The position numbers and the translations under genes were made by a program. A stretch of DNA of 64,000 bases from a bacterium. Lineage in GTDB: Bacteria > UBA10199 > 2-02-FULL-44-16 > JAAZCA01. The stretch lies in assembly GCA_021810905.1 (NCBI GenBank), contig JAJZQH010000003.1, positions 1,897 to 65,896 of the forward strand, written 5' to 3'. Shown one piece after another: positions 9,631 through 59,000 of the stretch (positions are counted from its first letter, which is position 1; each line of letters opens with the position of its first letter). Below the pieces are notes generated by a model. It saw nothing but the letters and a program-made list of their open reading frames with translations, had not been told where the DNA came from and searched no databases.

Positions 9631-9652
9631 TTGCGCCTCCGCAATAACGTAT

Positions 9653-16385: not shown

Positions 16386-17618
16386 TCAGCATCCGACCGG
16401 ACATCCGCATACTCCCGGCACGCTCGTGCCTGGCACACTCGTGTCGGGCGGGCATTGCGAATTCGAGGTACAGACCCCGCCAGTGTCGCAGTAGCAGGTA
16501 CAGTCTGTTCCGCCGGTGTTGCCTCCTGTATTGCCGCCGCCCGTGTTTCCGCCTCCACTGCCCGTGGATGCGGGGCATGCCCCCCAGGTGCAACCTGTAC
16601 CGCACTGTTTTGTGCCATCAGGATAGCAGGGCATGTACGAGCCCGGCGTGCACTGATAATCGTTCGGGCACGTGGGAAGTATTGCACCAGGACTGACGAC
16701 GCCGCTCTGTTGTAACGAGCCTGGTGAGATGTAAGTGTTTGCCATAGTGACGAGCCCGCTGCCGTCGTTCATGACCTGGACGGCGCTGTCGAGCGTGTTG
16801 CTGGATACATCAAGCGCCGCGCTCACGCAGGACCCCGCATCTCCGAGCGTGCATTTAAAGACGTCGACTCCCGTAAGAATGCTTCCGGCGTCCCCGAGAT
16901 TTTCGAGCCACGTCTCGTCGCCCATCACCACAGTTGCAGTCGTCACGATGACGCCGGCGCACGGAAGCGCCATTGCGCCGAGGGAGACTGTCGTGGCTAC
17001 ACCGCAGGCGCCTACGGAAATGCCCAGCCCCGCAAACTTGAGCAGCTCCGCGAGGTTTTTGACGTCGGAGTCGCAGGCCGGGAAGCAGGTCGACTTGGTT
17101 GAAGCCGAACTGCTGCTGACGGCACTGGCGCCACCGGCGCCGGTAATTAAGTTCGAGGCTTCCGCGGGAACGCTAACCCTCCTGAACACTTCTACGTAAT
17201 CTGTCGGAACGTAGATCTTCGCGATATCGACCGTCCCCGCGCTCAGGTCCCAGTTGGAGAAGAGAAGGATGAAGTCGCCCATGACCGTCCTGTAAGGCAG
17301 CCCGTCGGCGCCAAAGAAAACCGCCACATTGCCGCCCGTGGCGTTGGTCCAGAGTGCGCCCACAATCTTCTCGGTGGTTCCGCTGGAACCGGGAATCGCA
17401 TTGCTCACCAGCGGGAGGAGCATCTCGCCGTCTTTGTTCACCATAATCGCGCCGAGCGAATCTTTGCTCTGCATCACGGCCGCGACCTCGGGCGTATTTT
17501 CGTTGCTGCCGCTCGTACTCCCAGCGCTCCCGCTTCCGCTCGTTCCGCTGCCTACCGATATGCATGAAACGACAGACGGAAGAAAGCAGAGCATCATCAT
17601 AACCAGTATTTTTCTCAT
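16386..17618 (-). CDS. Cys-rich lipoprotein, unknown function (paralog of 52619..53983)
   Basis: ORF 16386..17618. Lipobox LPSVVSC and AGGAGGG RBS. Gly/Asn/Thr linker, then a Cys-dense C-terminus. It shares a near-identical 49-aa core with the 52619..53983 protein. Confidence 0.75.
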   Translation of the reverse strand: MRKILVMMMLCFLPSVVSCISVGSGTSGSGSAGSTSGSNENTPEVAAVMQSKDSLGAIMVNKDGEMLLPLVSNAIPGSSGTTEKIVGALWTNATGGNVAVFFGADGLPYRTVMGDFILLFSNWDLSAGTVDIAKIYVPTDYVEVFRRVSVPAEASNLITGAGGASAVSSSSASTKSTCFPACDSDVKNLAELLKFAGLGISVGACGVATTVSLGAMALPCAGVIVTTATVVMGDETWLENLGDAGSILTGVDVFKCTLGDAGSCVSAALDVSSNTLDSAVQVMNDGSGLVTMANTYISPGSLQQSGVVSPGAILPTCPNDYQCTPGSYMPCYPDGTKQCGTGCTWGACPASTGSGGGNTGGGNTGGNTGGTDCTCYCDTGGVCTSNSQCPPDTSVPGTSVPGVCGCPVGC

Positions 17619-21882: not shown

Positions 21883-23403
21883 TCACGGATTATCGGAGCG
21901 CCGTCGTCGGAAATCCTCGAGAAATTCCGCTAGAGGCATTTTGAATTCGCCTGATCCGCCGTTCGCCATCGAGTTCCGCCACATCAATCCAGCAAGGCGC
22001 TGCTGAACGCCCTCGTCCTCTATGACGAGCGCTTCCAGGAGCAGGTTGCGACCGCCTTGCGCGCAGTTCGAGAGAATGAATAAGAGCGGGGCATCATTGC
22101 GCATTTCAAGACGTTCCCGCATCTTTCGCAGATTTGCGAGCAGCGAATTGAAAACCTTCACCGCATTCTTGTTGCCGATGAAGACAATATCGCGGTTCAT
22201 CAAACCGCCCAATCCAGGGGTTTCGCCGGTTTTCAGCCAAAGCTCAAGAGAGCAGCGAAAGCCGTGCTCCCCATAGACCGTCGCAAATCCGGGTCGCAGC
22301 TCAAAGCCCGCGTACCTCATCATCTCGAAGAGCGCTACGTGGAACCCTGGTCTCCACGTATCGTCATCAAAGACGATGAGCATGGAACCGCCTTCCGAGA
22401 TCCGCCTTTCGCATCCGCACAGGAGCTCATGCATCCTGGTGAGGTACATACGATCGAATGTGTGCAGGGGATCCATCTCCCAGTCCATCGCCTCAGGGTG
22501 TACCCACGTCACCAGATCAAAGGTCTCAAGAGAGTCGCCATCATCCGCAAGGCCCTCAATAAATCCGGATTGCACCATCCCACATCCGTCTCCGGCACGG
22601 ACCTGATGAATCTTTCCCTCAGGATCGTCCCCAAGAGCGCACTGAAACTCTTTGAGATTGATCCTGGCGCCCTCCAATTTCCAACTCAAGACATCAAATC
22701 CGATAGTCTTCACGAGACCCGGAAGCGCCAGTCTCATCCCCAAATTCTCGTACCATTTCCCCGCGCCGACCGAAAGTACGGTGCGCGCCTCACACTTCTT
22801 TCCGACTTCCTGATAGAGGAGTATTTGCGCGGTATCGTAATACAATCTTGGGACGAGTTCGTCGGCGCCTCCGCCATTATAGAAATGTTGATAGAGCCTC
22901 AGCAGATCATACCGCTGCGCAGCGACAAGCTGTTCGACCGAGAAGTGATCTCTGCTTGCAGACAGTGCCCGCGGCACTGAGTCCCTCAACTCGATATTTT
23001 TTTGAATCCATTGCGGGAGTTCAATGAGATGGTTCCCCGCAGCTTGCTGCGGGGTTTCCGCCACCATCTCCCTTGAGGGGAGAGGGAAGGGTGAGGGTGA
23101 TCGTCGATGTTGCCGGTGATACCCCGCGGCTTGCCGCGGGGAGCATTCATTTTCCGGAGCCGACTGTTCGCGATCGCGCGTGACTGGCAGTCGCGGAGTA
23201 ACCGGCCCAGGCGCGCCACGATATTGATCGCCAACCGCCACATATTCCGACGCCACGTCATTCAGGCATATACCCTGACGGGAATCGGGCAGCGGTATAA
23301 TATCATCGTCGCAGACCACGAACACTTCCTCTGCACCGGATTCCTCTGCAGGCAGCCCGTCTGCCGCGGCCATTACATCGAGATTTAACGGTTTTACGGT
23401 CAT
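21883..23403 (-). CDS. Hypothetical protein with class-I SAM-methyltransferase-like core; the ORF reads through a MITE copy
   Basis: ORF 21883..23403. Good RBS (AGGAGA) before ATG 23403. Rossmann MTase-like motif series VLSVGAGKW / IGFDV / FDLVTWVHP / ISEGGSMLIVF. Residues ENECSPRQAAGYHRQH...AAGNHLIEL are encoded by the repeat at 23021-23151. Confidence 0.5.
   Translation of the reverse strand: MTVKPLNLDVMAAADGLPAEESGAEEVFVVCDDDIIPLPDSRQGICLNDVASEYVAVGDQYRGAPGPVTPRLPVTRDREQSAPENECSPRQAAGYHRQHRRSPSPFPLPSREMVAETPQQAAGNHLIELPQWIQKNIELRDSVPRALSASRDHFSVEQLVAAQRYDLLRLYQHFYNGGGADELVPRLYYDTAQILLYQEVGKKCEARTVLSVGAGKWYENLGMRLALPGLVKTIGFDVLSWKLEGARINLKEFQCALGDDPEGKIHQVRAGDGCGMVQSGFIEGLADDGDSLETFDLVTWVHPEAMDWEMDPLHTFDRMYLTRMHELLCGCERRISEGGSMLIVFDDDTWRPGFHVALFEMMRYAGFELRPGFATVYGEHGFRCSLELWLKTGETPGLGGLMNRDIVFIGNKNAVKVFNSLLANLRKMRERLEMRNDAPLLFILSNCAQGGRNLLLEALVIEDEGVQQRLAGLMWRNSMANGGSGEFKMPLAEFLEDFRRRRSDNP
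23021..23151 (-). mobile_element. MITE/REP-like three-hairpin element, copy a (inverted, inside ORF 21883..23403)
   Basis: The reverse complement aligns end to end with copies at 46752, 52424 and 55828 (aatgaatgctccccgcggcaagccgcgggg...ccccgcagcaagctgcgggg..catctcattga). Confidence 0.8.
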
Positions 23404-23471: not shown

Positions 23472-23631
23472 CAAATCCGACACTTGAATTATCACTCAAA
23501 TCCTCCCTCCCTTGATGGGAGGGAGTTTGAGGGAGGGTGACCATGAAGACTTTCGTCACCCAAGGAATGAGTACCACCCTCTCCCTAACCCTCTCCCATC
23601 AAGGGAGAGGGAATTTTTTGTGTCGGATTTC
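23472..23631. repeat. Palindromic hairpin-cluster element bounded by an 11-bp inverted repeat
   Basis: AAATCCGACAC (23472-23482) pairs with GTGTCGGATTT (23621-23631). Internal hairpins are CTCCCTCCC-ttgat-GGGAGGGAG, GGGTGAC..GTCACCC and CCCTCTCCC-atcaa-GGGAGAGGG. It lies between divergent genes. Confidence 0.6.
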
Positions 23632-45442: not shown

Positions 45443-46591
45443 TCATAGATATAACTGCAGCTGGACCCTCGCACGGTGGTCGATCTCTCCCTGAATGAAC
45501 CCCGGCGCTCCACCGGTCGTGACGATATTGGCTGGCCCGTTCACTCCGGCAGTTCCTCCAGCGCCTTTAACGAGTGCTCCGTTGATGAGGGCGCTGTAAT
45601 CCGCCTGAATTTTCAGATTGTGGCCGAAGAAGTAATAGTTGAAACATGCACCGGCTTCATAACCTTTAGTCACGCCTCCGGTGGGAACAACCCCCGCGAA
45701 TCTCCCCGCGACCTCAAAACGCTTTGGAATCAGAAAATAGCCGGCCTCGCCAAGGAAGCCGAACGTGTTTGTCTTTGCAGTGTGGTTCCTCAGGTAGTTG
45801 CCCTCACCATATAGGGAGAATCCCCGATACTGCAGGATGACATCGCTGGTCGTTGCTATTGTCGTGGCCTCGGGAACGGTTCCGCCGAGACGATTGTAGT
45901 TGCCGGCAATACCCACTGCCAGTTTAGGCGTCTCGGAAAAATCCAGATCGCTTATCGTGTAACCGGGCTCACCCAGGATGTTGAAGACAAGTCGGCCGCC
46001 CACAAGAAACATGAGATTGCGATTTGCAGCGTTAATATTGTTTCCGTCGTTAACCGCGAACACCGAATATTCCAGCCACCTGTCAACCGGCTTTCCGTGC
46101 ATCTCAATTCCCAGACCGCGGCCGAACGAGAAGGCCTCGTTGTTTACCGAGCGATCCACGAACTGCAGCTTCGTACTAGAAGTCAGCTCTTCCCTGTTAT
46201 AGGGCGCCTTAAACTGCCCGGCTTTCACTTGAATCCCATGACCGAAGTCATAATTGATGTATGCATCGCGCAGGTTCGGCCCGGTGTAAGCGACTCCAGG
46301 CGAAGCATTGGTCGTTCTGCCGCCCACCGCTTCAAACTGAACTTTGTAAGTAAGCTCTTTTGTGAAGGCATGCCCTGAAAAGATGAGCCGGCCGCGCCTG
46401 ATCTGAAACGAATTCGTCTTGCCGTGTCCTTCGATTGATACGAATTGATACTGCGGTTGCAGTTGGATTCCGAATTTCAATTCAAACTTTCCGTCGTCGG
46501 ATTCGAGCGTCAAGGGCTTATCGGCCCATGCCGCACGCCCTCCGCCGATGATGAACAGCACACCGATCAGCATTATGATAATCTTCCGCAT
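45443..46591 (-). CDS. Phosphate-selective porin O/P family outer-membrane protein
   Basis: ORF 45443..46591. Signal peptide, then alternating beta-strand pattern ending ...RARVQLQLYL. Sits in the Pho cluster. Confidence 0.75.
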   Translation of the reverse strand: MRKIIIMLIGVLFIIGGGRAAWADKPLTLESDDGKFELKFGIQLQPQYQFVSIEGHGKTNSFQIRRGRLIFSGHAFTKELTYKVQFEAVGGRTTNASPGVAYTGPNLRDAYINYDFGHGIQVKAGQFKAPYNREELTSSTKLQFVDRSVNNEAFSFGRGLGIEMHGKPVDRWLEYSVFAVNDGNNINAANRNLMFLVGGRLVFNILGEPGYTISDLDFSETPKLAVGIAGNYNRLGGTVPEATTIATTSDVILQYRGFSLYGEGNYLRNHTAKTNTFGFLGEAGYFLIPKRFEVAGRFAGVVPTGGVTKGYEAGACFNYYFFGHNLKIQADYSALINGALVKGAGGTAGVNGPANIVTTGGAPGFIQGEIDHRARVQLQLYL

Positions 46592-46698
46592 CTAACGCTC
46601 CTTTCCTCACATTGAAAGTGCTCGTGATTGACGACGAGGATGACCTGCAGGACTGCGCCACGACCTGGACAATATAGATCAAATCGTTACGAACGCCT

Positions 46699-46726
46699 TG
46701 TTCGGAAATCGTTAGAAAATTGTTAA
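46699..46726 (-). promoter_or_regulatory. Pho-box-like triple direct repeat upstream of the porin gene
   Basis: The minus strand reads TTAACA-atttt-CTAACG-atttc-CGAACA, nearly superimposable on the pstS site. Confidence 0.55.
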
Positions 46727-46751
46727 TGCGTGAACTTGTAGCTCATCAAGA

Positions 46752-46901
46752 CAATGAATGCTCCCCGCGGCAAGCCGCGGGGTATCACCGGCAACATCTC
46801 CGATCACCCTCACCCCTGCCTACCGGCAGGCAGGCTTCCCTCTCCCCTCAAGGGAGAGTGGCGGAACCCCCGCAACAAGCTGCGGGGAATCATCTCATTG
46901 A
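46752..46901 (+). mobile_element. MITE/REP-like three-hairpin element, copy b (with ~20-bp internal insertion)
   Basis: caatgaatgctccccgcggcaagccgcgggg...ccctctcccctcaagggagag...cccgcaacaagctgcggggaatcatctcattga. It ends directly against the stop codon (46902-46904) of the phosphatase gene. Confidence 0.8.
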
Positions 46902-48059
46902 CTATCTTTCAAAGAGTGCGGTTGAAATGAGGCGATGTATATCGGTATTTTCGATCGTCCCTGACTTGAAGTGGTCCTTCATGCCAATCGCGAAGAGAGG
47001 GACGTCGACTGCGGTGTGCGCGGCCTCAAGTGAAGCGGGATCGTTCGGATCGAGGACGCGCGGATACGCAGAGTGCGGACCCGTCGCCCACGTGATGATC
47101 GGGTAAAGCCTTCCGTCTGCATCCTCGCCGGCATTTGCGAGGACGCTGCTGCCTGCCTTCGCATAGCCGTTTATCGCAAGTCCGCCGGTTTCGTGATCCG
47201 CCGTCACCAGTATCAGCGCCTTCTCCGGATCCGTCATCGAGGCACCGGCGCGGACAGCGGCGTCGAACTCGATGGTTTCTTCAAACGCGTCGTGCGCCCG
47301 GTTATCATGTTCTGCCTGGTCGATTCGACCGCCCTCGACCATGAGGAAAAATCCTTTTGGATTTTTTGAGAGCCGTTCGATGGCGATCTTCGTCATCTCG
47401 GGGAGCGAGGGCCCTGAATATCCGGACTGCTTTCTCTCGAGCACAAATGGGATATGGCTGTCCGCGAAGCAGCCGACAACCTTTTGATCGATCGGCGCCA
47501 TCTTTATATCCCGCAGATTGTATGCCAGCGTGAAGCCCTTCCTGGTCACTTCATCCTTTGAGAAATATTTACAGCCACCTCCCATTGTCACATCGATCTC
47601 CGAGTCCAGCAGCTGGCCCGCGATTTTTTGCTCCTCGTTGCGATCAGCAACGTGTGCATAAAAACCCGCCGGCGTTGCATGGGTGATGCGAGTAGTGGTG
47701 ACGAGACCCACGGAGAGCCCCATTTTTTTTGCCTCTTCGGCTATCGTTACGAGCCTGTGATTCAGATCGCACCTGGGTCCCAGACCTAGACAACCGTTAT
47801 CGGCCTTGCTTCCGGTAGCCATAGCTGTAATTGCAGCCGCTGAGTCGGTCACCATCTTGTTGTGAGATCCTGTGCGCACGTGAGCGATGAGCGGGAGCTC
47901 ATCAATGAAGAGACCGCCGCGCCGCTCATTCTTATAAAGCCGAGTTGCAGTGATATCCGCGACGCCCATCCCGTCTCCGATGAAGAGGATGACATCTCTC
48001 GCATGAGCGGTTTGCGAGATGAGGCATGCTGCCAGCGCTATTGCAATTTTGAATTTCAT
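46902..48059 (-). CDS. phoA: Alkaline phosphatase (PhoA family), secreted
   Basis: ORF 46902..48059. Signal peptide, ILFIGDGMG, active-site VTDSAAAITAMATG and ADHETGG. Confidence 0.88.
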   Translation of the reverse strand: MKFKIAIALAACLISQTAHARDVILFIGDGMGVADITATRLYKNERRGGLFIDELPLIAHVRTGSHNKMVTDSAAAITAMATGSKADNGCLGLGPRCDLNHRLVTIAEEAKKMGLSVGLVTTTRITHATPAGFYAHVADRNEEQKIAGQLLDSEIDVTMGGGCKYFSKDEVTRKGFTLAYNLRDIKMAPIDQKVVGCFADSHIPFVLERKQSGYSGPSLPEMTKIAIERLSKNPKGFFLMVEGGRIDQAEHDNRAHDAFEETIEFDAAVRAGASMTDPEKALILVTADHETGGLAINGYAKAGSSVLANAGEDADGRLYPIITWATGPHSAYPRVLDPNDPASLEAAHTAVDVPLFAIGMKDHFKSGTIENTDIHRLISTALFER

Positions 48060-48103
48060 GGTTGTCTCCTTATCCAGTTATTATGAAATAAATATTTTGA
48101 ACG

Positions 48104-48126
48104 TGTAAAAAATTTGTAAGCGTTAA
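48104..48126 (-). promoter_or_regulatory. Pho-box-like repeats upstream of the alkaline phosphatase gene
   Basis: The minus strand reads TTAACG-CTTACA-aattt-TTTACA, 45-65 nt upstream of ATG 48059. Confidence 0.45.
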
Positions 48127-48161
48127 CTCATTGTCGCTGCCCGATCTGGCTCAATGCCGAT

Positions 48162-50009
48162 TCATTTGGCCGCGCTCAACCCGCGCTCCATATCGGGCAG
48201 CATTTTCTTCATCCTGTTCGCCATGAAAAAGGCCTTAAAGAACATCCCCCAGCTGACCAATGAATTCGCAAACAGATTCCACTGCCTCACGATTCTCTCC
48301 GCAACGTTCAAGCCCTCCGTCTCCATCTCTTCGGCGGCCCTGGTATTCTTGGCTATGGCATGCCCGATCTTGATGCTCTCCCACAACTTGCCCATGAATC
48401 CCCTGGAGTCCTTTGACTCAGCCCTTTTTTTACGGGTCGATCTGATCGCCTGCCAAATTTGTCCCATGTTGCGGCCTGCCAGGAATCTCCTTATCGCAGG
48501 GCCTTCTTTCACCATATACTGCAGGAAGAGCAATCCGCCGTACGTTGAAGTGAACAACAGCGCGTGGGGTTCTGTGGCTGGATAGACTGAAACTGCAGTG
48601 CCGATGAGAGATGCGGCTGCGCCTATGCCCAGCGCGTTGACTATATGTTCGGTCGAAAGCTGTCTTGTCCTCTCCGCCACGGTCATTCTGTGCGTTTTTC
48701 CATTCTTCACTTCTACGGTCCCGTTCGGATCGAGACCGCGCAGCCCCCAGTGCTCTTTTAAGTTTCTGATCGTCTTGCCGGCAATCACTCCAAAGCCAAT
48801 GCTCGGAGGGAGCAATGCGAGGAGAAGACCGCCTATGACCAGCGTCTTTGGGACAACAAACGCGTAGTTGGCCCACCGATAAAGCGCCTCTGCGTTCGTG
48901 GATAAGGCGGCAGCGTTGTGTGCCGTCGGCTGAAGTTTTTCCATGGCATCGCTTACATAGGCAGAGTTCTCACGCAGAAAGGAGAAGCGTTCGGGCGCAA
49001 ACAGTGCGGCCCCGAGTATGGCGCTCGAGGCGATGGCCACGGCAAACTTCGGCACACGGGCAATCGCGTTGCCGAGCGAAAAGAGCGCGGCGTTGACGTC
49101 AGGGGTGTTGATCTGTCTGTCCTCTCCCTTTTCCACGGCTGACACGTATTTCTGTTGCTCTGCCTCGAGCATGGATAACCCGCTCTTCGCCTTTGCCCAC
49201 CATCCCAGGATCGACAGCGCAAATGCCCCATTTACCGCAATCGTTCCCGCAATATAACCCGCTTCCCACATGGTTGTGCCCCTGCCGAACAATTGCGCTG
49301 CGCCTATAGCCAGAAGCGTCGCACCTGAACAGACCTTGTCGGCCGTAAACGCCACGTTTCCGAGCAGGTCATAATAGTTTCGGAGATGGAGCTTCGTCCG
49401 CTCATCTTCGCTCAACCTTGTATCTCTGGCGAATGCAGCGGTCGCTGCAATATTGCCTCCGATAGCAAGCAGGTATCGTGCAAGCTTGCCTCCCATATAA
49501 ACATTCGAGTATCCGGCTGATTCGATGTCGATCTGAACCCTCTCAGAAGGGCTGAGGGCATGCCCCATGTGATCGCCGACGAGAAAACGCATCGGGATCG
49601 ACATGACATTTCCGGTATCCTGAGTATGGAGCGGTTCATCCGTGTAGGTGCCGGCCGCAACAAGCGCGCCGCTTATTGCCTCAGCCCTTGCATAATCGCC
49701 GACTGCCGCGGCGGCGCTGGGGACTCCCTGCGTCGACAATCTCCACAATGCCTTTCCGTCGATTCCGCCGTCATGCTGAGATCCTTCCGCAACTGTGGAT
49801 ACAGGGCCAGAGACACCCGACGGAGCAAAGGTTGATGACTGATTTGAAATCGCAGCAGCATCTACTGAGGAAGCGGCCGCAGGGGAAAGGCGGTCATCAA
49901 CGATATCGTCCGCAGTCAGCTCTTCCGTTTCATCAAAAAGAGGCTCCGCAGAAATTGCCGAGCCAAACTGCTCTGCTGAAGCCGTAAGGGAAGCCTGCAC
50001 GCTTACCAT
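48162..50009 (-). CDS. 615-aa hypothetical multi-pass membrane protein with acidic disordered N-terminus
   Basis: ORF 48162..50009 with AAAGGA RBS. No signal peptide and no recognisable family. Several long hydrophobic segments (e.g. GATLLAIGAAQLF, GYIAGTIAVNGAFALSILGWW, TLVIGGLLLALLPPSIGFGVIAG). Confidence 0.6.
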   Translation of the reverse strand: MVSVQASLTASAEQFGSAISAEPLFDETEELTADDIVDDRLSPAAASSVDAAAISNQSSTFAPSGVSGPVSTVAEGSQHDGGIDGKALWRLSTQGVPSAAAAVGDYARAEAISGALVAAGTYTDEPLHTQDTGNVMSIPMRFLVGDHMGHALSPSERVQIDIESAGYSNVYMGGKLARYLLAIGGNIAATAAFARDTRLSEDERTKLHLRNYYDLLGNVAFTADKVCSGATLLAIGAAQLFGRGTTMWEAGYIAGTIAVNGAFALSILGWWAKAKSGLSMLEAEQQKYVSAVEKGEDRQINTPDVNAALFSLGNAIARVPKFAVAIASSAILGAALFAPERFSFLRENSAYVSDAMEKLQPTAHNAAALSTNAEALYRWANYAFVVPKTLVIGGLLLALLPPSIGFGVIAGKTIRNLKEHWGLRGLDPNGTVEVKNGKTHRMTVAERTRQLSTEHIVNALGIGAAASLIGTAVSVYPATEPHALLFTSTYGGLLFLQYMVKEGPAIRRFLAGRNMGQIWQAIRSTRKKRAESKDSRGFMGKLWESIKIGHAIAKNTRAAEEMETEGLNVAERIVRQWNLFANSLVSWGMFFKAFFMANRMKKMLPDMERGLSAAK

Positions 50010-50153
50010 CGCTGCGTCCTTTCGAAAAACAAGTTGCGCTCGTGACCATGCTTTCTGTAATAATGCTCATGACCTCTCTCACCTGGCGCATTAAGCGCAG
50101 ACGTGCTTTAGGAAGTGATTCGCAATCTGTTAATTATTGGTTAGGAGCGCCGC

Positions 50154-50843
50154 ATGGCTAAACTGAAAGTGCTCGTGGTCGACGACGAGGAAGACCTGCA
50201 GGAACTGCTGCGCTACAATCTCGAAAAAGAGGGCTATTCCGTATCGTGCGTCTCATCGGGTGAAGAGGCTCTCGCCTCTGTCAGAAAAAGCGTGCCGGAC
50301 ATCATCGTTCTGGACCTCATGCTTCCGGGCATGGACGGCTTCGACGTCTGCAGGGCGCTGAAGAAAGAGCAGAAGAGTGCGCGCATTCCTATAGTGATGC
50401 TCACTGCAAAAGGTGAGGACACGGACATCGTAGCCGGGCTCGAACTGGGCGCTGACGACTACGTGACCAAGCCCTTCAGTCCCAGGGTTCTGATAGCGCG
50501 GCTGAGAATGGTGCTGCGCCGCAAGCGCAAGGACGATGCGCCGTCTGCTGCAGAAACGATTGAGATACGAAATCTGACGATAGACCCGCAGCGGCACAGG
50601 GTCTCCATCAAGGGCAGGTCCGTCGAGCTCACCGCGACTGAGTTCGCCCTGCTGCATCACCTGGCCGGCAAACCCGGCTGGGTCTTCACGCGCGGCCAGC
50701 TCATCGATTCGATCAAGGGGAGCGACTACGCCGTGACCGAACGCTCGATAGACGTACAGATCGCCGGCCTCAGAAAAAAACTCGGCGCGGCCGGAGAAAA
50801 TATCGAGACGGTGCACGGCGTCGGCTACAGGTTCAAGGAGTGA
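50154..50843 (+). CDS. phoB: OmpR-family response regulator PhoB
   Basis: ORF 50154..50843. Receiver domain (VVDDEEDL, DLMLPGMDG, LTAKG) plus winged-helix C-terminus (LTATEFALLHHLA..VHGVGYRF). Adjacent to phoR and the pst genes. Confidence 0.88.
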   Translation: MAKLKVLVVDDEEDLQELLRYNLEKEGYSVSCVSSGEEALASVRKSVPDIIVLDLMLPGMDGFDVCRALKKEQKSARIPIVMLTAKGEDTDIVAGLELGADDYVTKPFSPRVLIARLRMVLRRKRKDDAPSAAETIEIRNLTIDPQRHRVSIKGRSVELTATEFALLHHLAGKPGWVFTRGQLIDSIKGSDYAVTERSIDVQIAGLRKKLGAAGENIETVHGVGYRFKE

Positions 50844-50846
50844 GAG

Positions 50847-52274
50847 ATGTCGAGAAAGCGGCTCTTGTGGCAGCTCTATCCTTCGTATCTCGCGATCACG
50901 CTGCTGGCGCTCGTGGCGATCGCGATATACTCGTCCAATGCGTTCAAGCAGCTCTTCTACGAACAGACTCTCTCGGAGCTCACGCATTCGGCCAGGCTCG
51001 TCTCGCAGATCATACTTGGATCCAACGCATGGAGCGAGAAGACCATAGACGCAATATGCAAACAGGCGGCCCAGAACTCATCCAAGAGGATAACCGTAAT
51101 CCTTCCCGACGGCGTCGTCATCGGGGATTCAGAGGAAGATCCGGGTTTGATGGAAAATCACGCTGAGCGGCCAGAGGTGAGCGAGGCGCTCGAGGGCTCC
51201 GTGGGAATAGCCACGCGCCACAGCCGTACGCTGGGCAAGGACATGACCTACGCCGCGATACCGCTCTACAAAAACGACAAGGTGGCGGCAGTCGTGCGCA
51301 CGTCGATGCCAACGCGTTCGCTGTCGGAAGTTATGAGCTCTCTGTATGCGGGCATCGCACTCGAAGCCGTGCTCCTCGCCATCCTCGTTGCGGCGATGCT
51401 CCTCGTCATCTCCAGAAAAATAATCAAGCCGCTGGAGAAGATCCGGATCGGGGCACGCAAATTCCTTGAGGGAGATCTCTCATACCGTTTGAGGGTTCAC
51501 GGTTCCGATGAGGTAAAGGCGCTGGCGACGACGATGAACCAGATGGCGGCCGAGCTGCAGGAACGGATCGAGCGCCTCAAGCAGATGGAGAACACGCGCC
51601 GCGAATTCGTAGCCAACGTCTCTCACGAACTCAAGACGCCGATCACCTCCATCAAGGGGTTTGCGGAGACGCTGCGCGACGGTGCGCTGGACGACCCTTC
51701 GCGCGCGAAGCAGTTCCTGGAGATCATAGCTTCGCATGCCGAGAGGATATCCAATATCATCGAGGACCTTCTGCACCTCTCCCGGATCGAGCAGGTGCAT
51801 GAGGTGCAGCAGATACCGCTGGAGCGCAGCGCGATCAGGGAGATGCTCGAGTCCGCGATCCTCATGTGCGAGACCAAGGCTTCGGAGAAAAAAATTACGC
51901 TGGAGCTATCCTGCGACGCCGGGCTCACGGCCCTCATAAATCCTGCGCTGCTCGAGCAGGCGGTCGTGAACCTCATCGACAACGCGATCAAGTACAGCGC
52001 CGAAGGCGGAAAGGTTTTCATCGAAGCGAAGGACGACGCCTCGGGCATGCGCATCTCCGTGCGCGATTCGGGAGTCGGAATACCGCAGGAACACCTGTCG
52101 CGGATTTTCGAGCGATTCTATCGTGTGGACAAGGGTCGGAGCCGCAAGCTGGGCGGCACCGGCCTGGGGCTCGCGATCGTGAAGCACATCGTGGCTGTGC
52201 ACAACGGACACGTCTCCGTCGAAAGCACCGTGGGTCAAGGGAGCAAATTTACGATCCGCCTGCCGGCCGAATAA
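50847..52274 (+). CDS. phoR: Sensor histidine kinase PhoR-like
   Basis: ORF 50847..52274. Two TM segments flank a periplasmic domain, then HAMP. H-box FVANVSHELKTPITSIKG, N-box NLIDNAIKYS, G-boxes DSGVGIP and GGTGLGLAIVK. Confidence 0.85.
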   Translation: MSRKRLLWQLYPSYLAITLLALVAIAIYSSNAFKQLFYEQTLSELTHSARLVSQIILGSNAWSEKTIDAICKQAAQNSSKRITVILPDGVVIGDSEEDPGLMENHAERPEVSEALEGSVGIATRHSRTLGKDMTYAAIPLYKNDKVAAVVRTSMPTRSLSEVMSSLYAGIALEAVLLAILVAAMLLVISRKIIKPLEKIRIGARKFLEGDLSYRLRVHGSDEVKALATTMNQMAAELQERIERLKQMENTRREFVANVSHELKTPITSIKGFAETLRDGALDDPSRAKQFLEIIASHAERISNIIEDLLHLSRIEQVHEVQQIPLERSAIREMLESAILMCETKASEKKITLELSCDAGLTALINPALLEQAVVNLIDNAIKYSAEGGKVFIEAKDDASGMRISVRDSGVGIPQEHLSRIFERFYRVDKGRSRKLGGTGLGLAIVKHIVAVHNGHVSVESTVGQGSKFTIRLPAE

Positions 52275-52423
52275 ACACTTTCGTCAGACGGCGAAGCCGG
52301 AAAACACTCATAATATCAGGATTGGACGGGAGCGATCCGGGGTCTGCGGTCTCCATATCAGGTGAATATTTTCGCTGGCTTTCGATACGAGAGATAGAAT
52401 ATAGACCTGCTTTCAAATGCCGC

Positions 52424-52557
52424 TAATGAATGCTCCCCGCGGCAAGCTGCGGGGTATCATCGGCAACATCTCCGATCACCCTCACCCTTCCCTCTCCCCT
52501 CAAGGGAGAGGGTGGTGGAAACCCCGCAGCAAGCTGCGGGGAATTATCTCATTGATG
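52424..52557 (+). mobile_element. MITE/REP-like three-hairpin element, copy c
   Basis: taatgaatgctCCCCGCGGcaagCTGCGGGGtatcatcggcaacatctccgatcaccctcacccttCCCTCTCCCctcaaGGGAGAGGGtggtggaaaCCCCGCAGCaaGCTGCGGGGaattatctcattgatg. Confidence 0.85.
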
Positions 52558-52618
52558 CATCAACCGTTGATGCATTGAGGCATTTAACCACCAAGCTGCA
52601 GATAGATGGAGGTGTACT

Positions 52619-53983
52619 ATGAAAAGGGTCATATGCTTGCCGATAGTGCTTCTCGCCTTTGTCCTCGTTTCATGTGTCAGCACTTCAAGCGGCACCAGCA
52701 GCGACAGCGGCACCACCAGCGGAACCTCGTCCACGACGATTCCCGCCAAGGCAGCAGTACTGCACAGCACGCCTCCATTCGGCGGGATCATGGTGGCCGA
52801 CAGTGGAGAGGTGATCCTCCCATTGGTCAGCTCCGACGGCAAGACGATCACCGGCGCCATCTGGAACAGCGAGACCGGCGGCACAGTCACGGTCTATCTC
52901 GATCCTTTGACCCACCTGCCCACCAAGACCATCCTTGGAGATTTCATCTTCCTCTTCTCCAACTGGAACGCGAACGCAGGAACCGTGGACATCGCTGAGA
53001 TCTACGGGCCAGGCAACTTCGTACAGTTGTTCAGGGGTGTGAGCGTCTCCTCGCTCGCGATCGCTAACGCCAATCTGAGTTCCAAAGACATGGCCTCCAA
53101 GTCGACGTGTTTCCCGGCCTGCGACTCCGACGCCAAGAATCTCGCGGAGCTCCTCAAGTTCGCGGGGCTGGGCATATCTGTCGGCGCATGCGGCGTGGCG
53201 ACGACCGTCTCGCTTGGAGCGATGGCGCTCCCGTGCGCCGGCGTTCTCGTGAGCACGGCCATCGCCGTTGTGGATACTGATACGTGGCTGCAGAATCTCG
53301 ACGATGCGGAGAGCATTCTTTCGGTGATCGACGCAGCGCAGTGCGCAACGCTCGATGTGGAGAGCTGCATCAGCACGATCCTCGGAGGTCTGAGCGCCCT
53401 CTTCGACAACGCGAGCAAGGTCGAGACCGCATATGCAGATTTTGAAACGAACGCAGATGCGGCGCTGGCAGATCCTGCCCAGCCGAGCGGCGTCATGCCC
53501 GGAAGTGGAGCTTTGCCGATAGCGGCGACAGGCACCTATGAATGCGATCCGAACGGCTCCATGCTCTATGAACCCTGCCTCACGGGCGGGACGAAGACAT
53601 GCCAGGCCGACTTCACCTATTCCGAATGTCCGAATGCGCCTTCCAGCAGCAGCTCAGGCAGCACCGGAGGAAGTGGAGGTTCCGGCGGAAGCGGCGGCAG
53701 TGGTGGAAGCGGAGGCAGCGGTGGAGGCAGCGGCGGGGCGTGTTCCTACAGCTACGATATTCCCAGCATGAAGTGCCCTGGCGAAACCTGCGTTACGTTT
53801 GCGGCTTGTTGCTCCTCATGTTCCATCAGCTCCTGCGTATCTACTTCTGACGAGCACTGCAACGGGGCGTCCTATTATTACAAGGTGTCAGGCGACCCAA
53901 CGCATTACTCGACCAGCTCGGCGTGTCAGTTGGCAGCTAACTGTGTTTACCAGTGTTTTGGCCAGACGGCCACGTGCAACTGA
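52619..53983 (+). CDS. Cys-rich lipoprotein, unknown function (paralog of 16386..17618)
   Basis: ORF 52619..53983. Lipobox FVLVSC. (GGS)n linker. Cys-dense C-terminus. Conserved core at 53098-53245. Confidence 0.75.
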   Translation: MKRVICLPIVLLAFVLVSCVSTSSGTSSDSGTTSGTSSTTIPAKAAVLHSTPPFGGIMVADSGEVILPLVSSDGKTITGAIWNSETGGTVTVYLDPLTHLPTKTILGDFIFLFSNWNANAGTVDIAEIYGPGNFVQLFRGVSVSSLAIANANLSSKDMASKSTCFPACDSDAKNLAELLKFAGLGISVGACGVATTVSLGAMALPCAGVLVSTAIAVVDTDTWLQNLDDAESILSVIDAAQCATLDVESCISTILGGLSALFDNASKVETAYADFETNADAALADPAQPSGVMPGSGALPIAATGTYECDPNGSMLYEPCLTGGTKTCQADFTYSECPNAPSSSSSGSTGGSGGSGGSGGSGGSGGSGGGSGGACSYSYDIPSMKCPGETCVTFAACCSSCSISSCVSTSDEHCNGASYYYKVSGDPTHYSTSSACQLAANCVYQCFGQTATCN

Positions 53984-54002
53984 CCCACCAGGAAATGATT
54001 TG

Positions 54003-54035
54003 AAAAAGGCCACCCTCTGTCCGGGTGGCCTTTTT
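54003..54035. terminator. Bidirectional rho-independent terminator
   Basis: AAAAA-GGCCACCC (54008-54015), 7-nt loop, GGGTGGCC (54023-54030), then TTTTT, between convergent genes. Confidence 0.8.
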
Positions 54036-54059
54036 GCGAATGCAAAGAAATCGATTGTT

Positions 54060-54260
54060 TCACTTGTCGGTAATTGACCAGGTTCCGGACGCGGGCTTGT
54101 GCTTGCCGCAGTGCGGGCATTCGTCCGCGCCGTTCCAGAATGGCTTTCCGCAGTAGGGGCACGGCTTGCGCGCGGCCTTGCAATGAGGGCAGCTCGCTGC
54201 AAGGGGATCCAGAAGTTCTCCGCAGAGGTCGCATGAAATCATGGGATCAGCGATCTTCAT
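54060..54260 (-). CDS. Small double zinc-ribbon protein
   Basis: ORF 54060..54299 trimmed to ATG 54260 (MKIADPMISCDLCGE) behind GGAGGG. Four CxxC pairs (CDLC, CPHC, CPYC, CPHC). Confidence 0.65.
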   Translation of the reverse strand: MKIADPMISCDLCGELLDPLAASCPHCKAARKPCPYCGKPFWNGADECPHCGKHKPASGTWSITDK

Positions 54261-54300
54261 ATGCCCTCCGGATGGAATATTCAGAATATCGTATCGCATT

Positions 54301-55677
54301 TTATCGCTCCGAAACCATGGGCAAAGCCAGCGCGTTCGCGCCGCTCACCAGGTCTTCATAAGAATCGTCGTCCTGTGTCACACGATCTTCCTCTTCTGGG
54401 AACGAAGACTGACCGGTCCCCGCATCGAAGAGGAGATTTTTTTCATCTTCTCCACCCGCATTTCTCACATCCACTACAGAGTGGCCTGCGTGAAATTTCA
54501 CCTGTTCCACACCTGAATCGAGAGCTGCGATCACGCGCCTGGTTACGCTGTGCAATCTGGCCGGGTCATCGTCCATAATGCGGATGTGCATCGAGCCGAG
54601 AATCGCGAAATTGAGGACAGCGATCGGCGTGAAGAATGGAGCCGCGCCTCCGAAGACGCGATCTGCGTGACGCTGCAGATCGTGATGGCGCGCCTCTTTG
54701 CTCCGGGCGGCAATCAGATACGAATTTTCCATATCGAGCAGCCCCGCCATGCCGTTAAAACCTGTGAACCACGGTTTATCGTAAAGAGATTGAAAGAGCC
54801 GCTGCGGCAGCAGCTCATCAACGGGAAAGATATTGAACGTTTCACTGCGCGCCGCTTCATCCGCCATGAGCATGTAGCCCGCGGCAGCCCGATCGTCAGC
54901 TGCGATCCCCTCCTGGAATTCCAGCTCCGTTCGATCATCGGCAATACCGATTCGAGGCGCTGCGACGCCGAACGCATCGAGAACCGAGTGAACCGCGCGC
55001 GACCATTCGGCTTGAGATAACTCGCCCATCGAGTGCGCGCGCATGAGCTCCATCCTGATCTTCGAATCGCCTGCGGCGCTGGAGATCGTGAGCGGCAGTA
55101 GCAGCGGCCTCTGCACAGGAAAAGCCAGATTCACCGCCTCCATGATATGCTCGTGTCTCACTGCGCCATCAGCAGCCATGAGCAGGATATTATTTCCATA
55201 GTCGAACAGTGCGGTGCGCACTGCAGGCCCGCCAGCTTTCCCGCGCAGAATTTCCGCGAGCTCATGCACCCTCTCACCAGCGTTCCTCAACACGCGCACG
55301 TAGTTGTCGCGGAAAAAAACGTACCTGGAAAGCGCTGCGTATCCGGCAAATACCGATTCCAGACTCATCTCCGCGTTACGATCGCGCAAAAGATATCCGC
55401 GCGCGTCTTCTCGGAACCTGCGCACGGTTGAAATGAGCGCTCCATACTCCCGCGCCTTTGGATCCGCGCTCCTGGAAAGCACGGCATGAAAACGAACGCC
55501 CAACGCCGCGTACGTTTGAAACCGCCTCGGATCTTCCACGGCGCTCAAGAGCACAGCGCGGCTCTGTCCGACCAGAGTCGGATCGTCCTCGACGATGGAC
55601 CTCGCCAGCCCCCTGCCGTGCTCCGTCCTGAGGATGGAAAAATCGTAGCCTGATACCGCGCCGCTGGAATCGTACAT
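54301..55677 (-). CDS. 458-aa hypothetical protein with acidic C-terminal tail
   Basis: ORF 54301..55677 with AGGTGA RBS. No family recognised. Its stop lies 40 nt upstream of the zinc-ribbon start. Confidence 0.6.
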   Translation of the reverse strand: MYDSSGAVSGYDFSILRTEHGRGLARSIVEDDPTLVGQSRAVLLSAVEDPRRFQTYAALGVRFHAVLSRSADPKAREYGALISTVRRFREDARGYLLRDRNAEMSLESVFAGYAALSRYVFFRDNYVRVLRNAGERVHELAEILRGKAGGPAVRTALFDYGNNILLMAADGAVRHEHIMEAVNLAFPVQRPLLLPLTISSAAGDSKIRMELMRAHSMGELSQAEWSRAVHSVLDAFGVAAPRIGIADDRTELEFQEGIAADDRAAAGYMLMADEAARSETFNIFPVDELLPQRLFQSLYDKPWFTGFNGMAGLLDMENSYLIAARSKEARHHDLQRHADRVFGGAAPFFTPIAVLNFAILGSMHIRIMDDDPARLHSVTRRVIAALDSGVEQVKFHAGHSVVDVRNAGGEDEKNLLFDAGTGQSSFPEEEDRVTQDDDSYEDLVSGANALALPMVSER

Positions 55678-55827
55678 TCAGATCACCTGTTCGAAAGCCC
55701 TCAGGAAGGCGTATAACGTCAACCCTTACCTCAGAGATAGCAATTTAATAATTTGAATATACACTGTTTTTTGAGATGCTCCAAGTCGCAAATGAATTGA
55801 TGGGCAGAAATAATGCTATCTGTGCGC

Positions 55828-55961
55828 TAATGAATGCTCCCCGCGGCAAGCCGCGGGGTATCACCGGCAACATCGACGATCACCCTCACCCTTCCCTCTC
55901 CCCTCAAGGGAGAGGGTGGCGGAAACCCCGCAGCAAGCTGCGGGGAATCATCTCATTGATG
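55828..55961 (+). mobile_element. MITE/REP-like three-hairpin element, copy d
   Basis: Near-identical to copy c. Lies 41 bp downstream of the cusA stop. Confidence 0.85.
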
Positions 55962-56002
55962 GGCCATCTTGACACACGCGGCAGGATGTTTGCTCGAGAA
56001 GA

Positions 56003-59000
56003 TCAGCCTCTGAATTCCCTCTTCTTCCAGAGGAGATAAATTGCGGGGTACACCAGGAGTTCCATCGCGAATGACGTGACGAGTCCGCCTACCATCGGAG
56101 CTGCGATGCGCTTCATCATGTCCGCGCCCGTGCCGATGGACCACATGATCGGGATGAGTCCCATGAATGCGGCCATGACAGTCATCATCTTCGGCCGGAT
56201 TCTTTTCACAGCGCCGTGCACGATCGATTCCTTGAGATCTGAGATATCCTTGAGCATCCCGTTCTTGCGCGCGTCCTCGTGCGCGATGTCGAGATACAGG
56301 AGCATGAAAATGCCGGTCTCCGCATCGAGACCCATGAGCGCGATGAGCCCCACCCATACCGCGATCGACATGTGATAACCCAGGATGTACAGGAGCCAGA
56401 TCGCGCCGATCGCGGAGAACGGAACCGCGAGGAGCACGATCGCGGCCTTGATGCCGGACTTCGTGTTCAGGTAGAGCAGCACGATGATGATGAAGAGCGC
56501 GAGCGGCAACACCACCTTGAGCTTCTCGCGCACGTGCAGCATGTTCTCGTATTGTCCGCTCCACGCGAGCGCGTAACCTGACGGCAGCTCAAGGTTCGCA
56601 TTCACCGCTTTTTTTGCGTCAGATACAAAGCTGCCCACGTCGCGTCCGGCCAGATCTACGTACACATAGCCCGACAGCATTCCGTTCTCGTTTCGAAGCA
56701 TGCTCGGGCCCTGCACCAGGCGAATATCGGCCAGCGCAGCGATGGGCACCTGCGCGCCGTCGGGCGCCGCGACCAGCACGCGCGAGAGCGCGCTCATGTC
56801 GTCGCGAAGTTCCCTGCTGTAGCGCACGTTGATCGGATAGCGCTCTCGCCCTTCCACCGTCGTCGAGACGTTCTCTCCTCCGATGGCCGAGAGGATCGTC
56901 TCTTCCGCGTCGGCAACCGAAATTCCAAGCCGCGCGAGTTCATCACGCTTGAGGTCGAAATCCAGGAAGTATCCGCCTGCGGCGCGCTCCGCGAATACGC
57001 TCCTCGTACCCGGCACGCCCTTGAGTATAGTTTCAAGGCGGCTGCCGATCTTCTCGATTTCCTTTGTATCGTTTCCGAGGATCTTGATTCCTATCGGCGT
57101 GCGTATGCCGGTGGAGAGCATGTCGATGCGCGCCCTGATCGGCATGGTCCACGCGTTGGAGACGCCCGGGAACTGCATGGCCTTGTCCATCTCTGCAACG
57201 AGTTCGTCCCAGCTCAACCTGTCGTTCCAGATATGCCTCAATGGAGCCTTCATTATATCCGGCATCCATGAGTACCATCGTTTTTTTCCACGCCACTCAT
57301 CCATCGGTTTGAGCACGACCGTCGTCTCCATCATCGAAAACGGCGCAGGATCCGTGGAAGTCTCGGCGCGGCCCGCCTTGCCGAAGACCCGCTCTACTTC
57401 TGGAAACGATTTCAATATGCGGTCCTGCTGCTGAAGGAGATTCTGCGCCTCAGTCACCGATATGCCCGGCAGCGTCGTGGGCATGTAGAGGATAGTGCCC
57501 TCGTTCAAAGGCGGCATGAATTCGCTGCCCATCATGACGAACGGCGGGATCGCGGTAAGGAGTAAAACCCCCGCGATCACGATGGTCCTCTTCGGATGTT
57601 TTAATACGAGCCTGCATGCGGGTTCGTAAACTCGGAAGAGCCTCTTGCTCACCGGATGTTTTTCCTCGGCGTAATAGCTGCCGACGAAGACGCGGTTGTA
57701 GATCCAGGAGAGCCAGGCGGGCTTGAAGTTGCGAAAATCCATGCGCGTGAAGAGCATGCGCATCACCGGATCGAGCGTCACCGCGAGGAGCGCGGCGATC
57801 GCCATGGCGAACGTCTTCGAATACGCCAGGGGCTTGAAGAGCCGCCCTTCCTGATCCACGAGCGTGAAGATCGGCAGAAATGCGACTGCGATGACCAGCA
57901 GCGAAAAGAACACGGAGGGCCCGACCTGCTTGAGCGCGTCGAGGCGCACCTGATGGAAGTCTCCCTTGCGGCCGCCGTCCTTCCATTGCTGCAGCTTCTT
58001 GTAGGCGTTCTCCACCTCCACGATCGCGCCGTCCACGAGCACGCCGATGGATATGGCGATTCCCGCGAGCGACATGATGTTCGCGGTGAGCCCCATGAAG
58101 TAGAAGGGTATGAACGCGAGGAGCACCGACAATGGGATCGTGAATATCGGCACAACGGCCGAGGGGATATGCCAGAGAAAGATCAGGATCACTATCGATA
58201 CGATGATCATTTCCTCTATCAGCGTGTCGGTGAGCGTGGAGATCGAACGCAGTATGAGATCCGATCTGTCATATGTGGTGACGAGCGTAACGCCTTTGGG
58301 TAAAGACGGTTCGATCTCCTTGAGCTTCTCCTTCACGCGATCGATCACTCGAAGCGCGTTTTCTCCCTGCCGCATGATCACGATGCCGCCCACCGCGTCG
58401 CCTCTTCCGTCGAGGTCTGCCACGCCGCGCCTGATATCCGGCCCAAGCTCCACGTTGCCGATCTGCCCGATGGTAACCGGCGTGCCGGCTATCGGGTCGG
58501 CGCCGACCGCTATATTCCGGATATCCTCCACGCTCTTTGCGTACCCGCGGCCTCGCACCATGTATTCGCGTCCGGAAAATTCCACGAGGCGGCCGCCGAC
58601 GTCGTTGTTGTTGCGCCTGATCGCCTCCACGACCTGTCCGATCGGGATCTTGTAGGCCGCGAGTTTATTGGGATCCACGCCCACCTGATACTGGCGCACG
58701 AACCCGCCGACGGTCGCAACCTCCGCGACCCCGGGGACCGACTGGAGATAATAACGCAGATACCAGTCCTGATAGCTGCGCAGCCCAGCGAGATCGTTCT
58801 GTCCGGATTCATCCACCAGCGCATACTGAAAAACCCATCCCAGGCTCGTTGCGTCTGGACCGAGTTCCGTGGTCACTCCCTCGGGCAGTCGCGGAGTGAT
58901 CTTGCTCAGATATTCGAGCGCGCGGCTTCGCGCCCAGTATATGTCCGTCCCGTCCTCGAAGATGATGTAGACGTAGGAGAAACCGAAGTCGGAGAAACCG

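Follow-up and report, generated by a model that had tools for sequence, protein, structure and literature searches.

Four gene-less hairpin repeats of an uncultured bacterium as probable ends-only derivatives of an IS200-group insertion sequence

What are the near-identical, hairpin-rich repeats that lie at four places in a 64,000-nucleotide stretch of an uncultured bacterium (contig JAJZQH010000003.1, positions 1,897 to 65,896; this whole stretch is called the window here), and what kind of enzyme could have dispersed a sequence of about 130 nt that carries no transposase gene of its own? A first interpretation of the letters, referred to here as the sequence-only reading, had described the repeats as similar to miniature inverted-repeat transposable elements (MITEs) and to repetitive extragenic palindromes (REPs). 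Our analyses suggest, with a probability of roughly 85%, that they are non-autonomous, ends-only derivatives of an insertion sequence (IS) of the IS200 group in the IS200/IS605 family, that is, palindrome-associated transposable elements (PATEs) or MITE-like IS200 derivatives. This is a known kind of mobile element that is newly seen in the source bacterium. The assignment as a MITE stands insofar as the element is small, dispersed, and devoid of genes, but it is not of the terminal inverted repeat (TIR) type, a target-site duplication is lacking, and the hairpins represent subterminal palindromes of the IS200/IS605 family.

Alignment and repeat finding delimited a conserved unit of 131 nt at 55829-55959 (copy A), 52425-52555 (copy B), and 23021-23151 (copy D, in reverse orientation to the others), and of 149 nt at 46753-46901 (copy C), with pairwise identities among the four copies of 94-98%. 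The sequence-only reading had located all four to within 1-3 bases. The window also corresponds to bases 2221-66220 of contig DAHVYM010000026.1 in the NCBI metagenome-assembled genome GCA_027327785.1. The similarity starts and stops abruptly, with AATGAATG... at one edge and ...CTCATTGA at the other, and the flanks are unrelated, which rules out a segmental duplication as the source of the likeness. Copy C differs by a +20/-2 indel that gives rise to the extra small hairpin already seen in the letters (CCTGCC-TACC-GGCAGG, at about 46815-46830). There are also further copies: a left-truncated one is located immediately behind an MFS gene of this contig (L004, 10117-10197; L numbers denote loci), and a near-identical full one belongs to a different contig from the same sample (L254, 8297-8427). 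Neither of the refuting outcomes named in the sequence-only reading, a lack of additional copies or an origin from a larger duplication, therefore applies.

The three internal stem-loops that had been described are all present. Two of them are subterminal and represent the same 20-nt hairpin, CCCCGCRGCAAGCYGCGGGG, which reads CCCCGCGG or CCCCGCAG in the window, a GTAG variant being seen in some relatives only. In copy A, whose active strand is the minus strand, the left-end hairpin CCCCGCAGC-TT-GCTGCGGGG occupies 55926-55945, and the same hairpin is found upstream of IS200-type tnpA genes; the right-end hairpin CCCCGCGGC-TT-GCCGCGGGG occupies 55839-55858, and the central hairpin CCCTCTCCC-CTCAA-GGGAGAGGG lies at 55894-55916, adjacent to a CACCCTCACCC tract at 55882-55892. 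Two hairpin patterns gave 5 and 8 matches in the window, with an expectation of 0 for either in dinucleotide shuffles of the window, and folding of the unit against shuffles gave z = -6.1 to -6.6 for RNA on either strand and for DNA. The end hairpin can be regarded as real, since 29 compensatory double changes were counted among 52 distinct second hairpins of the wider family.

The imperfect TIRs of the sequence-only reading, by which a classical MITE would be moved by a DDE transposase, did not hold up. The ends AATGAATGCTCCCCGC and, as the reverse complement, TCAATGAGATGATTCCCCGC are indeed alike, and the size of the unit is typical of MITEs. However, this likeness results from one near-palindromic hairpin that is present twice, together with the short motifs TCAT and TCAA, and in each of the four window copies one and the same strand has CAAG as the loop of both hairpins, which is a direct and not an inverted arrangement. 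When the flanks were compared, as had been proposed, no target-site duplication was seen at any of the four copies; the only shared feature was a conserved TGA that is part of every copy. We therefore give hardly any credence to a TIR-type MITE. The L254 copy is peculiar in that the loop of its left-end hairpin is flipped (GCTTGC for GCAAGC on the strand first read), and its two hairpins are, unlike those of the window copies, truly inverted.

How, then, are the ends of such an element specified? In the case of IS608 from Helicobacter pylori, the cleavage sites are read not by TnpA itself but by a guide, the four bases 5' of the hairpin foot, with the pairings C-3:G-35 and T-4:A-34 and the fourth bases pairing with each other; the left end is cut 3' of TTAC, the right end is cut 10 nt past the hairpin, 3' of TCAA, and insertion takes place 3' of the target without duplication (PMC3201880). 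The order of the window element on the transposase-sense strand is TCAA/TGAGAT-GATT-left hairpin-central hairpin-GATA-right hairpin-AGCAT-TCAT/T, in which the slashes mark the predicted cuts. The IS608 rule (C1:G2, C2:G1, C4:G4) predicts TCAA from the guide GATT and TCAT from the guide GATA, and both tetranucleotides lie exactly at the conserved boundaries of the element. In copy A, the left guide is found in the 4 nt 5' of the left-end hairpin (55946-55949, AATC on the plus strand), and the corresponding TCAA (55956-55959, TTGA on the plus strand) is taken as pre-existing host DNA, 3' of which the element inserted. The right guide (55859-55862, TATC on the plus strand) covaries with the cleavage tetranucleotide throughout the family, and its TCAT (55830-55833, ATGA on the plus strand) is separated by 5 nt from the hairpin foot on its 5' side and borders on a conserved T (55829) on its 3' side. 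The right guide matches in all four window copies and the left guide in two of them. TCAA precedes all copies, as it precedes full ISs of the family in unrelated flanks (L104, L203, L236, and L207). The guide rule and the orientation of the linked tnpA genes both show that the element is active on the strand complementary to the one first read, and AATGA, which had been considered as a target on the latter strand, was dropped for this reason. With these boundaries, the element proper would comprise 126 nt in copy A (55830-55955).

The same rule could be followed in the wider family. A search with the bare 20-nt hairpin recovered at least 120 metagenome contigs and 7 viral contigs, giving 127 analyzed loci that were fetched by the hairpin alone. 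These loci share a conserved A(A/G/T)TGAA-N3-4 on the 5' side and TATC, CATC, or AATC on the 3' side, and their remaining sequence is unrelated. The tetranucleotide predicted by the guide was present 3' of the hairpin in 52 of 127 cases, as compared with 22 +/- 3.2 for shuffled guides (maximum 34 in 2000), and 5' of the hairpin in 30 of the 127 (10.7 +/- 2.8 for shuffled guides, maximum 22). The matched guide/cleavage pairs were GATA/TCAT (35 cases), GATG/TCAC (5), AATA/TTAT (3), AATG/TTAC (2), and GATT/TCAA (2). At left ends, the guide CATT goes along with a TGAA 12-15 nt upstream, mostly 14 nt, in 10 of 12 cases, and AATA is paired with TTAT and AATT with TTAA. The Nitrosomonas plasmid NZ_CP133084, which carries an annotated IS200/IS605 tnpA, likewise obeys the rule, combining GATT with TCAA and AATA with TTAT.

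Which transposase recognizes this hairpin? All-versus-all clustering of open reading frames (ORFs), followed by Pfam assignment, identified a PF01797 (Y1_Tnp) gene beside the hairpin in 10 of the 127 listed loci, and in 7 of these 10 a matching hairpin is present on both sides of tnpA; the remaining three lack one flank or have it beyond the end of a short contig. Y1_Tnp is the one mobile-element protein that recurs next to the hairpin in the listed loci, which also argues against a DDE transposase; a Mutator-type transposase occurs in three listed loci, its position relative to the hairpin not having been compared. The linked transposases have about 150 residues and form IS units of about 530-600 bp, and their HUH histidines and the catalytic tyrosine are invariant. 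They score 113-158 bits with the NCBIfam model NF033573 (IS200/IS605 family transposase, cut-off 55), and all eight that were tested beside the hairpin reach at most 44 bits with NF047646, the model of REP-associated tyrosine transposases (RAYTs; cut-off 80). The absence of a transposase gene from the window was confirmed, as a TnpA profile had no match among the window ORFs even at E <= 10. Beyond the window, the same profile found more than 7700 proteins, indicating a very large family, mostly on contigs shorter than 2 kb.

These scores also bear on the REP-like side of the earlier description. The hairpins could be REPs, with the 131-bp unit representing a REP doublet (REPIN) that is spread by a single-copy, domesticated RAYT. 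Such a system would agree with short, GC-rich, mostly intergenic paired palindromes with a GCAAGC center, with the JGI label "REP element-mobilizing transposase RayT" on some transposases of the family, and with single-hairpin mini forms in metagenomes, and the sample does contain a RAYT-like gene on a different contig (L132, 9016-9666). However, all eight tested transposases pass the IS200 model and fail the RAYT model, and the units of tnpA and hairpins are compact and occur as near-identical copies in differing contexts, which is typical of ISs. Window copies furthermore carry GCGG or GCAG where REPs have their GTAG/GTGG signature, and the L132 gene is accompanied by another palindrome, GTGCCTGGCAC, with no copy of the window element in its locus. 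A REP/REPIN origin is therefore improbable in our view, and the earlier term "REP-like" describes a resemblance and not membership. The L132 locus itself (ERZ27237050 k141_983839, 8800-9900) encodes a 216-residue Y1_Tnp protein that scores 56.9 bits with the REP-associated model and 26.1 bits with the IS200 model, both below the cut-off; the gene is flanked by three copies of its palindrome and lies directly upstream of the gene for P0004, a protein to which we return below. The locus appears to represent a REP/RAYT-like system of its own within this sample.

Short forms that consist of IS ends are common in many phyla. Among 188 end matches in the fetched loci, 12 are accompanied by a tnpA, and 67 lack this gene but have a second hairpin at a distance of up to 300 nt. 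One metagenome-assembled genome (MAG) of Nitrospira contains at least 20 copies of a 106-nt ends-only derivative whose ends are identical to those of the full ISs L104, L203, L236, and L207, and the layout of the window element is the same. According to a nucleotide hidden Markov model, the relatives closest to the latter are L232 and L180 from deltaproteobacterial MAGs and L078 from a sediment contig. The end motif occurs in MAGs labeled as Deltaproteobacteria/Desulfobacterota, Nitrospira (Nitrospirota), Binatia, Methylomirabilis, Lachnospiraceae (Firmicutes), Muribaculum (Bacteroidota), Acidobacteria, Phycisphaerae (Planctomycetes), and Betaproteobacteria, and in archaeal MAGs labeled as Woesearchaeota and Methanosarcinales. 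Many of the hairpin matches sit at contig ends, and a Logan assembly contig terminates within the 23021 copy. A strict 30-mer from the element end had no match in the GTDB representative genomes, in which the source species is absent or masked. A search with the four open translations of the element, concatenated, against 5.8 billion proteins gave two matches only and is of no use for copy counts. A literature search for the hairpin sequence, and likewise for the accessions of the assembly and the run, found no paper. We also noticed mini-elements of about 55-60 nt with a single hairpin, such as AATGAACTA-hairpin-AATTAGACCCATAGAGATTAA (L041, L051, L123, L131, L039, L071, L065, L034, and L112). 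Their one hairpin bears a left-type guide/target pair and a right-type TCAT tail, and its guide therefore cannot match both sites.

By analogy with IS608, a Y1/HUH transposase TnpA that is made elsewhere would bind single-stranded DNA at both subterminal hairpins, the cleavage tetranucleotides TCAA and TCAT would be paired with the guides GATT and GATA, respectively, and a cut after each tetranucleotide would release the element of about 126 nt as a single-stranded circle, which would then be pasted 3' of another TCAA without target duplication. Mobilization would thus occur in trans, and the exact positions of the cuts are predicted from the rule; at the right end, the conserved T after TCAT leaves an uncertainty of 1 nt. 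The resemblance to IS608 and to the "peel and paste" transposition of the IS200/IS605 family in general extends to the subterminal hairpins at both ends, the four-base guide 5' of the hairpin foot, the T-N-A-N cleavage tetranucleotide with the same crossed pairing, the similar distance of the right cleavage site from the right hairpin (8-9 nt on its 3' side, as compared with 10 nt in IS608), the AG after the hairpin foot, the lack of inverted repeats and target duplications, and, in the relatives of the window element, the HUH/Y1 transposase. Unlike IS608, the window element has neither tnpA nor tnpB, it uses the target TCAA and not TTAC, its hairpin is a near-perfect GC palindrome of 8-9 bp, and a T is conserved after the right cleavage site. 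The spacing at the left end differs as well, as only 6 nt separate the cleavage site from the guide, whereas IS608 has 19 nt between this site and the hairpin foot.

Ends-only derivatives of IS200/IS605 elements have been described as PATEs in Haloquadratum walsbyi (PMC3119063) and Halanaerobium hydrogeniformans (PMC7290912), and like these, the window element is short, consists of palindromic IS200/IS605 ends, and is presumed to be mobilized in trans. The IS605 end loops of Halanaerobium read AAGCT (PMC7290912), as do most hairpins here (GC-AAGCT-GC), with AAGCC in the left hairpin of three window copies. In contrast to PATEs, the window element would derive from the tnpA-only IS200 group and not from an IS605 type with tnpA and tnpB, it has a conserved extra central hairpin, and it is present in several near-identical copies, four of them in 64 kb. 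With the REP/BIME and REPIN elements that have RAYT (TnpA-REP) transposases (PMC3333891, PMC8266576), it shares dispersed, GC-rich, mostly extragenic palindromes and single-stranded hairpins that are recognized by a Y1/HUH enzyme related to IS200 TnpA. However, the enzymes linked here are of the IS200 class and not of the RAYT class, and the left and right ends are distinct, each with its own guide and cleavage set, and are not merely two inverted REPs. A preference of the IS200/IS605 family for the lagging-strand template has been described (PMC5027513); the active strand is the G-rich strand in four of the five copies on the source contig, which, with n = 5, fits such a bias weakly.

Several observations weigh against an ends-only IS200 derivative, or are at least not explained by it. 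The left guides of copy B (AATT, 52542-52545) and copy D (GGTT, 23031-23034) are mismatched to their TCAA; these two copies are probably decayed and immobile, or else the rule may be looser than assumed. For about one-third of the hairpins in the family, the predictions for the left end and for the right end both fail. Of 72 family members, 66 have a T directly after the right cleavage tetranucleotide, in the window at 55829, 52425, 46753, and 23151. This base is not accounted for by a four-base rule; it could point to a site of five bases, or to preferred targets in which TNAN is followed by T. No empty insertion site was recovered, and the edges of the element and its TCAA target are deduced from the guide rule and from sequence conservation. 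A cognate tnpA with the ends TCAA/...GATT-hairpin and GATA-hairpin-AGCATTCAT was not found in about 90 kb of the source genome (GCA_027327785.1), so that the search for an autonomous partner, as suggested in the sequence-only reading, was successful for other loci, where IS200-type tnpA genes carry the same hairpin, but not for the source genome.

A further such point is the central hairpin, CCCTCACC / CCCTCTCCC...GGGAGAGG, which is kept in the related elements of two deltaproteobacterial MAGs (L232 and L180), as this conservation across relatives is not explained by a pure deletion-derivative model. It can be envisaged that the host tolerates the three-hairpin subfamily, or makes use of it, as a cassette with a coding or regulatory role, in which the central hairpin would be the selected module, for example as a relic of the stem-loop that occludes the start codon in IS200, or as a site for a host factor. 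The retention of the central hairpin in at least two other deltaproteobacterial genomes despite diverged surroundings, two in-frame copies, and the creation of an ATG in one of them (see below) speak for a cassette, but we regard it as unlikely. The central module has a distribution of its own that we note separately. A BLAST search of the element against plasmids and phages matched only the central 41 nt, in intergenic DNA of E. coli and Rhizobium, with no phage match. Of 5426 complete E. coli genomes, 3461 contain a match of about 90% identity to the stretch CACCCTCACCC...CCCTCTCCC...GGGAGAGGG (55876-55916, about 41 nt), usually a single one; the one match inspected lies in the hrpB-mrcB intergenic region, and three Rhizobium plasmids have a match as well. 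The E. coli match may correspond to the "BoxC"-type repeat of this species.

In copy B, the element proper would extend over 52426-52551 on the minus strand, with the right cleavage site at 52426-52429, the right-end hairpin at 52435-52454, the right guide at 52455-52458, the central hairpin at 52490-52512, the left-end hairpin at 52522-52541, and the target TCAA at 52552-52555. Copy C, also on the minus strand, would have an element proper of 144 nt (46754-46897), in which the right-end hairpin (46763-46782) is followed by the extra 20-nt hairpin insertion at about 46815-46834, the central hairpin with a 2-nt deletion (46838-46860), the left-end hairpin with one A-C mismatch (46868-46887), the left guide GATT (46888-46891), and then the target TCAA (46898-46901). 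The active strand of copy D is the plus strand of the window, and its element proper would span 126 nt (23025-23150); the target TCAA (23021-23024) and the mutated left guide precede the left-end hairpin (23035-23054), the central hairpin (23064-23086), the right guide GATA (23118-23121), the right-end hairpin (23122-23141), and the TCAT of the right cleavage site (23147-23150).

Do the repeats have a function for the genes next to them? In copy C, the target TCAA is immediately adjacent to the TAG stop codon (46902-46904) of a PF00245 alkaline phosphatase gene (46902..48059, minus strand), and copy B begins 150 nt past the stop codon of a phoR-like gene (52274) and ends 64 nt before ORF 52619..53983; both placements had been recognized correctly. 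Copy A lies 43 nt, and not 41 nt as first given, downstream of the cusA stop codon (56003); relative to 54301..55677 (minus strand), it is located upstream, at a distance of 152 nt from the start. On this basis, the elements had been proposed to act as terminators or mRNA stabilizers, and a host-selected cis-regulatory RNA, be it an intrinsic terminator, a stabilizer of mRNA 3' ends, or a small RNA, would go well with three copies 0-150 nt past stop codons and with very stable hairpins. The left-end hairpin of IS200 in Salmonella reportedly terminates incoming transcription. However, a terminator scan of 46500-56300 gave no site at the three copies therein, where no hairpin is followed by a T-run and the longest run is TTT. 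Neighboring transcripts would carry the element in both orientations, and one copy lies within an ORF. A terminator or stabilizer role is therefore not supported by the sequence. Differences between copies in the stems are mismatches and not compensated pairs, and Rfam searches yielded no match in the whole window at the gathering score and, for one copy at a relaxed threshold, chance-level matches only (best E = 0.23). Altogether, a regulatory RNA is very improbable, and the effects on host genes, including the placement by stop codons and the in-frame insertion, are by-products of insertion.

This in-frame insertion concerns copy D, which had not been related to a gene in the sequence-only reading. 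It lies within, and in frame with, the called 506-codon ORF 21883..23403 (minus strand), to which it contributes NECSPRQAAGYHRQHRRSPSPFPLPSREMVAETPQQAAGNHLIE, about 42 codons. The homolog P0004 (433 residues, 58% identical) aligns from residue 127, the first after the element, and has a short, weakly similar N-terminal extension of its own; as it stems from the same sample as the source, it may be a paralog rather than an ortholog. In another assembly, the gene is called as a protein of 394 residues (P0003) that starts with an ATG inside the element, and the alignment of the copies indicates that a G-to-T change in copy D made this ATG. The L254 copy is likewise in frame inside a called ORF (P0005). 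Rickettsia palindromic elements insert in frame into coding genes, and a copy of about 130 nt with stop-free frames that adds about 42 codons to an ORF is similar, with P0005/L254 as a second case. We do not claim coding selection, as two open frames out of six in 126 nt with 62% GC is about what is expected by chance, and the idea that the element is stop-free by design was dropped on these grounds. A 42-codon mini-ORF (ATG...TGA) that spans the element on the strand first read was also rejected, as about 6 of about 7 differences between copies are non-synonymous and the sequence is of low complexity.

Some neighboring sequences deserve a brief description. Beside copy D, the intergenic region 23498-23616 contains two more GC-rich hairpins, the first being CTCCCTCCC-TTGAT-GGGAGGGAG followed by TTTGAGGGAGGGTG, and the second (23572-23616) being CACCCTCTCCCTAA-CCCTCTCCC-ATCAA-GGGAGAGGG followed by AATTTTTTG, with a close likeness to the central module of the element. 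The second one looks like a terminator because its stem, unlike the hairpins of the element, is followed by a T-run. A stretch at 46613-46652, which separates the porin gene from the phosphatase gene and lies just upstream of copy C, is 93% identical over 40 nt to 50164-50203, the first codons of a phoB-like response regulator gene (50154..50843), and looks like a truncated gene remnant. An inverted similarity between 16862-17300 and 52916-53333 (237 nt at 78% and 138 nt at 70%) connects the paralogous ORFs 16386..17618 (minus strand, 410 residues) and 52619..53983 (plus strand, 454 residues, just downstream of copy B), which have no Pfam match.

For genome annotation, our analysis implies that these repeats deserve to be masked as IS200/IS605-derived sequences. 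Assemblies break at them, they seed or extend spurious ORFs, and they can shift called start sites, as is evident from the same gene being called with 506 or 394 residues. The current understanding of the mechanism of IS200/IS605 elements is unchanged by our findings. What goes beyond the routine is a hairpin that is nearly invariant across phyla, the natural covariation of guides and cleavage sites, and the conserved central hairpin. One almost invariant 20-nt hairpin marks an IS200 subgroup across phyla, and the natural variation in this subgroup obeys the pairing rule that was established experimentally for IS608, so that the target site of any member can be read from its sequence. The natural guide/target pairs, with TCAA, TGAA, TTAA, TTAT, and TCAC as targets, would provide a ready catalog of reprogrammed targets of single-stranded DNA transposons.

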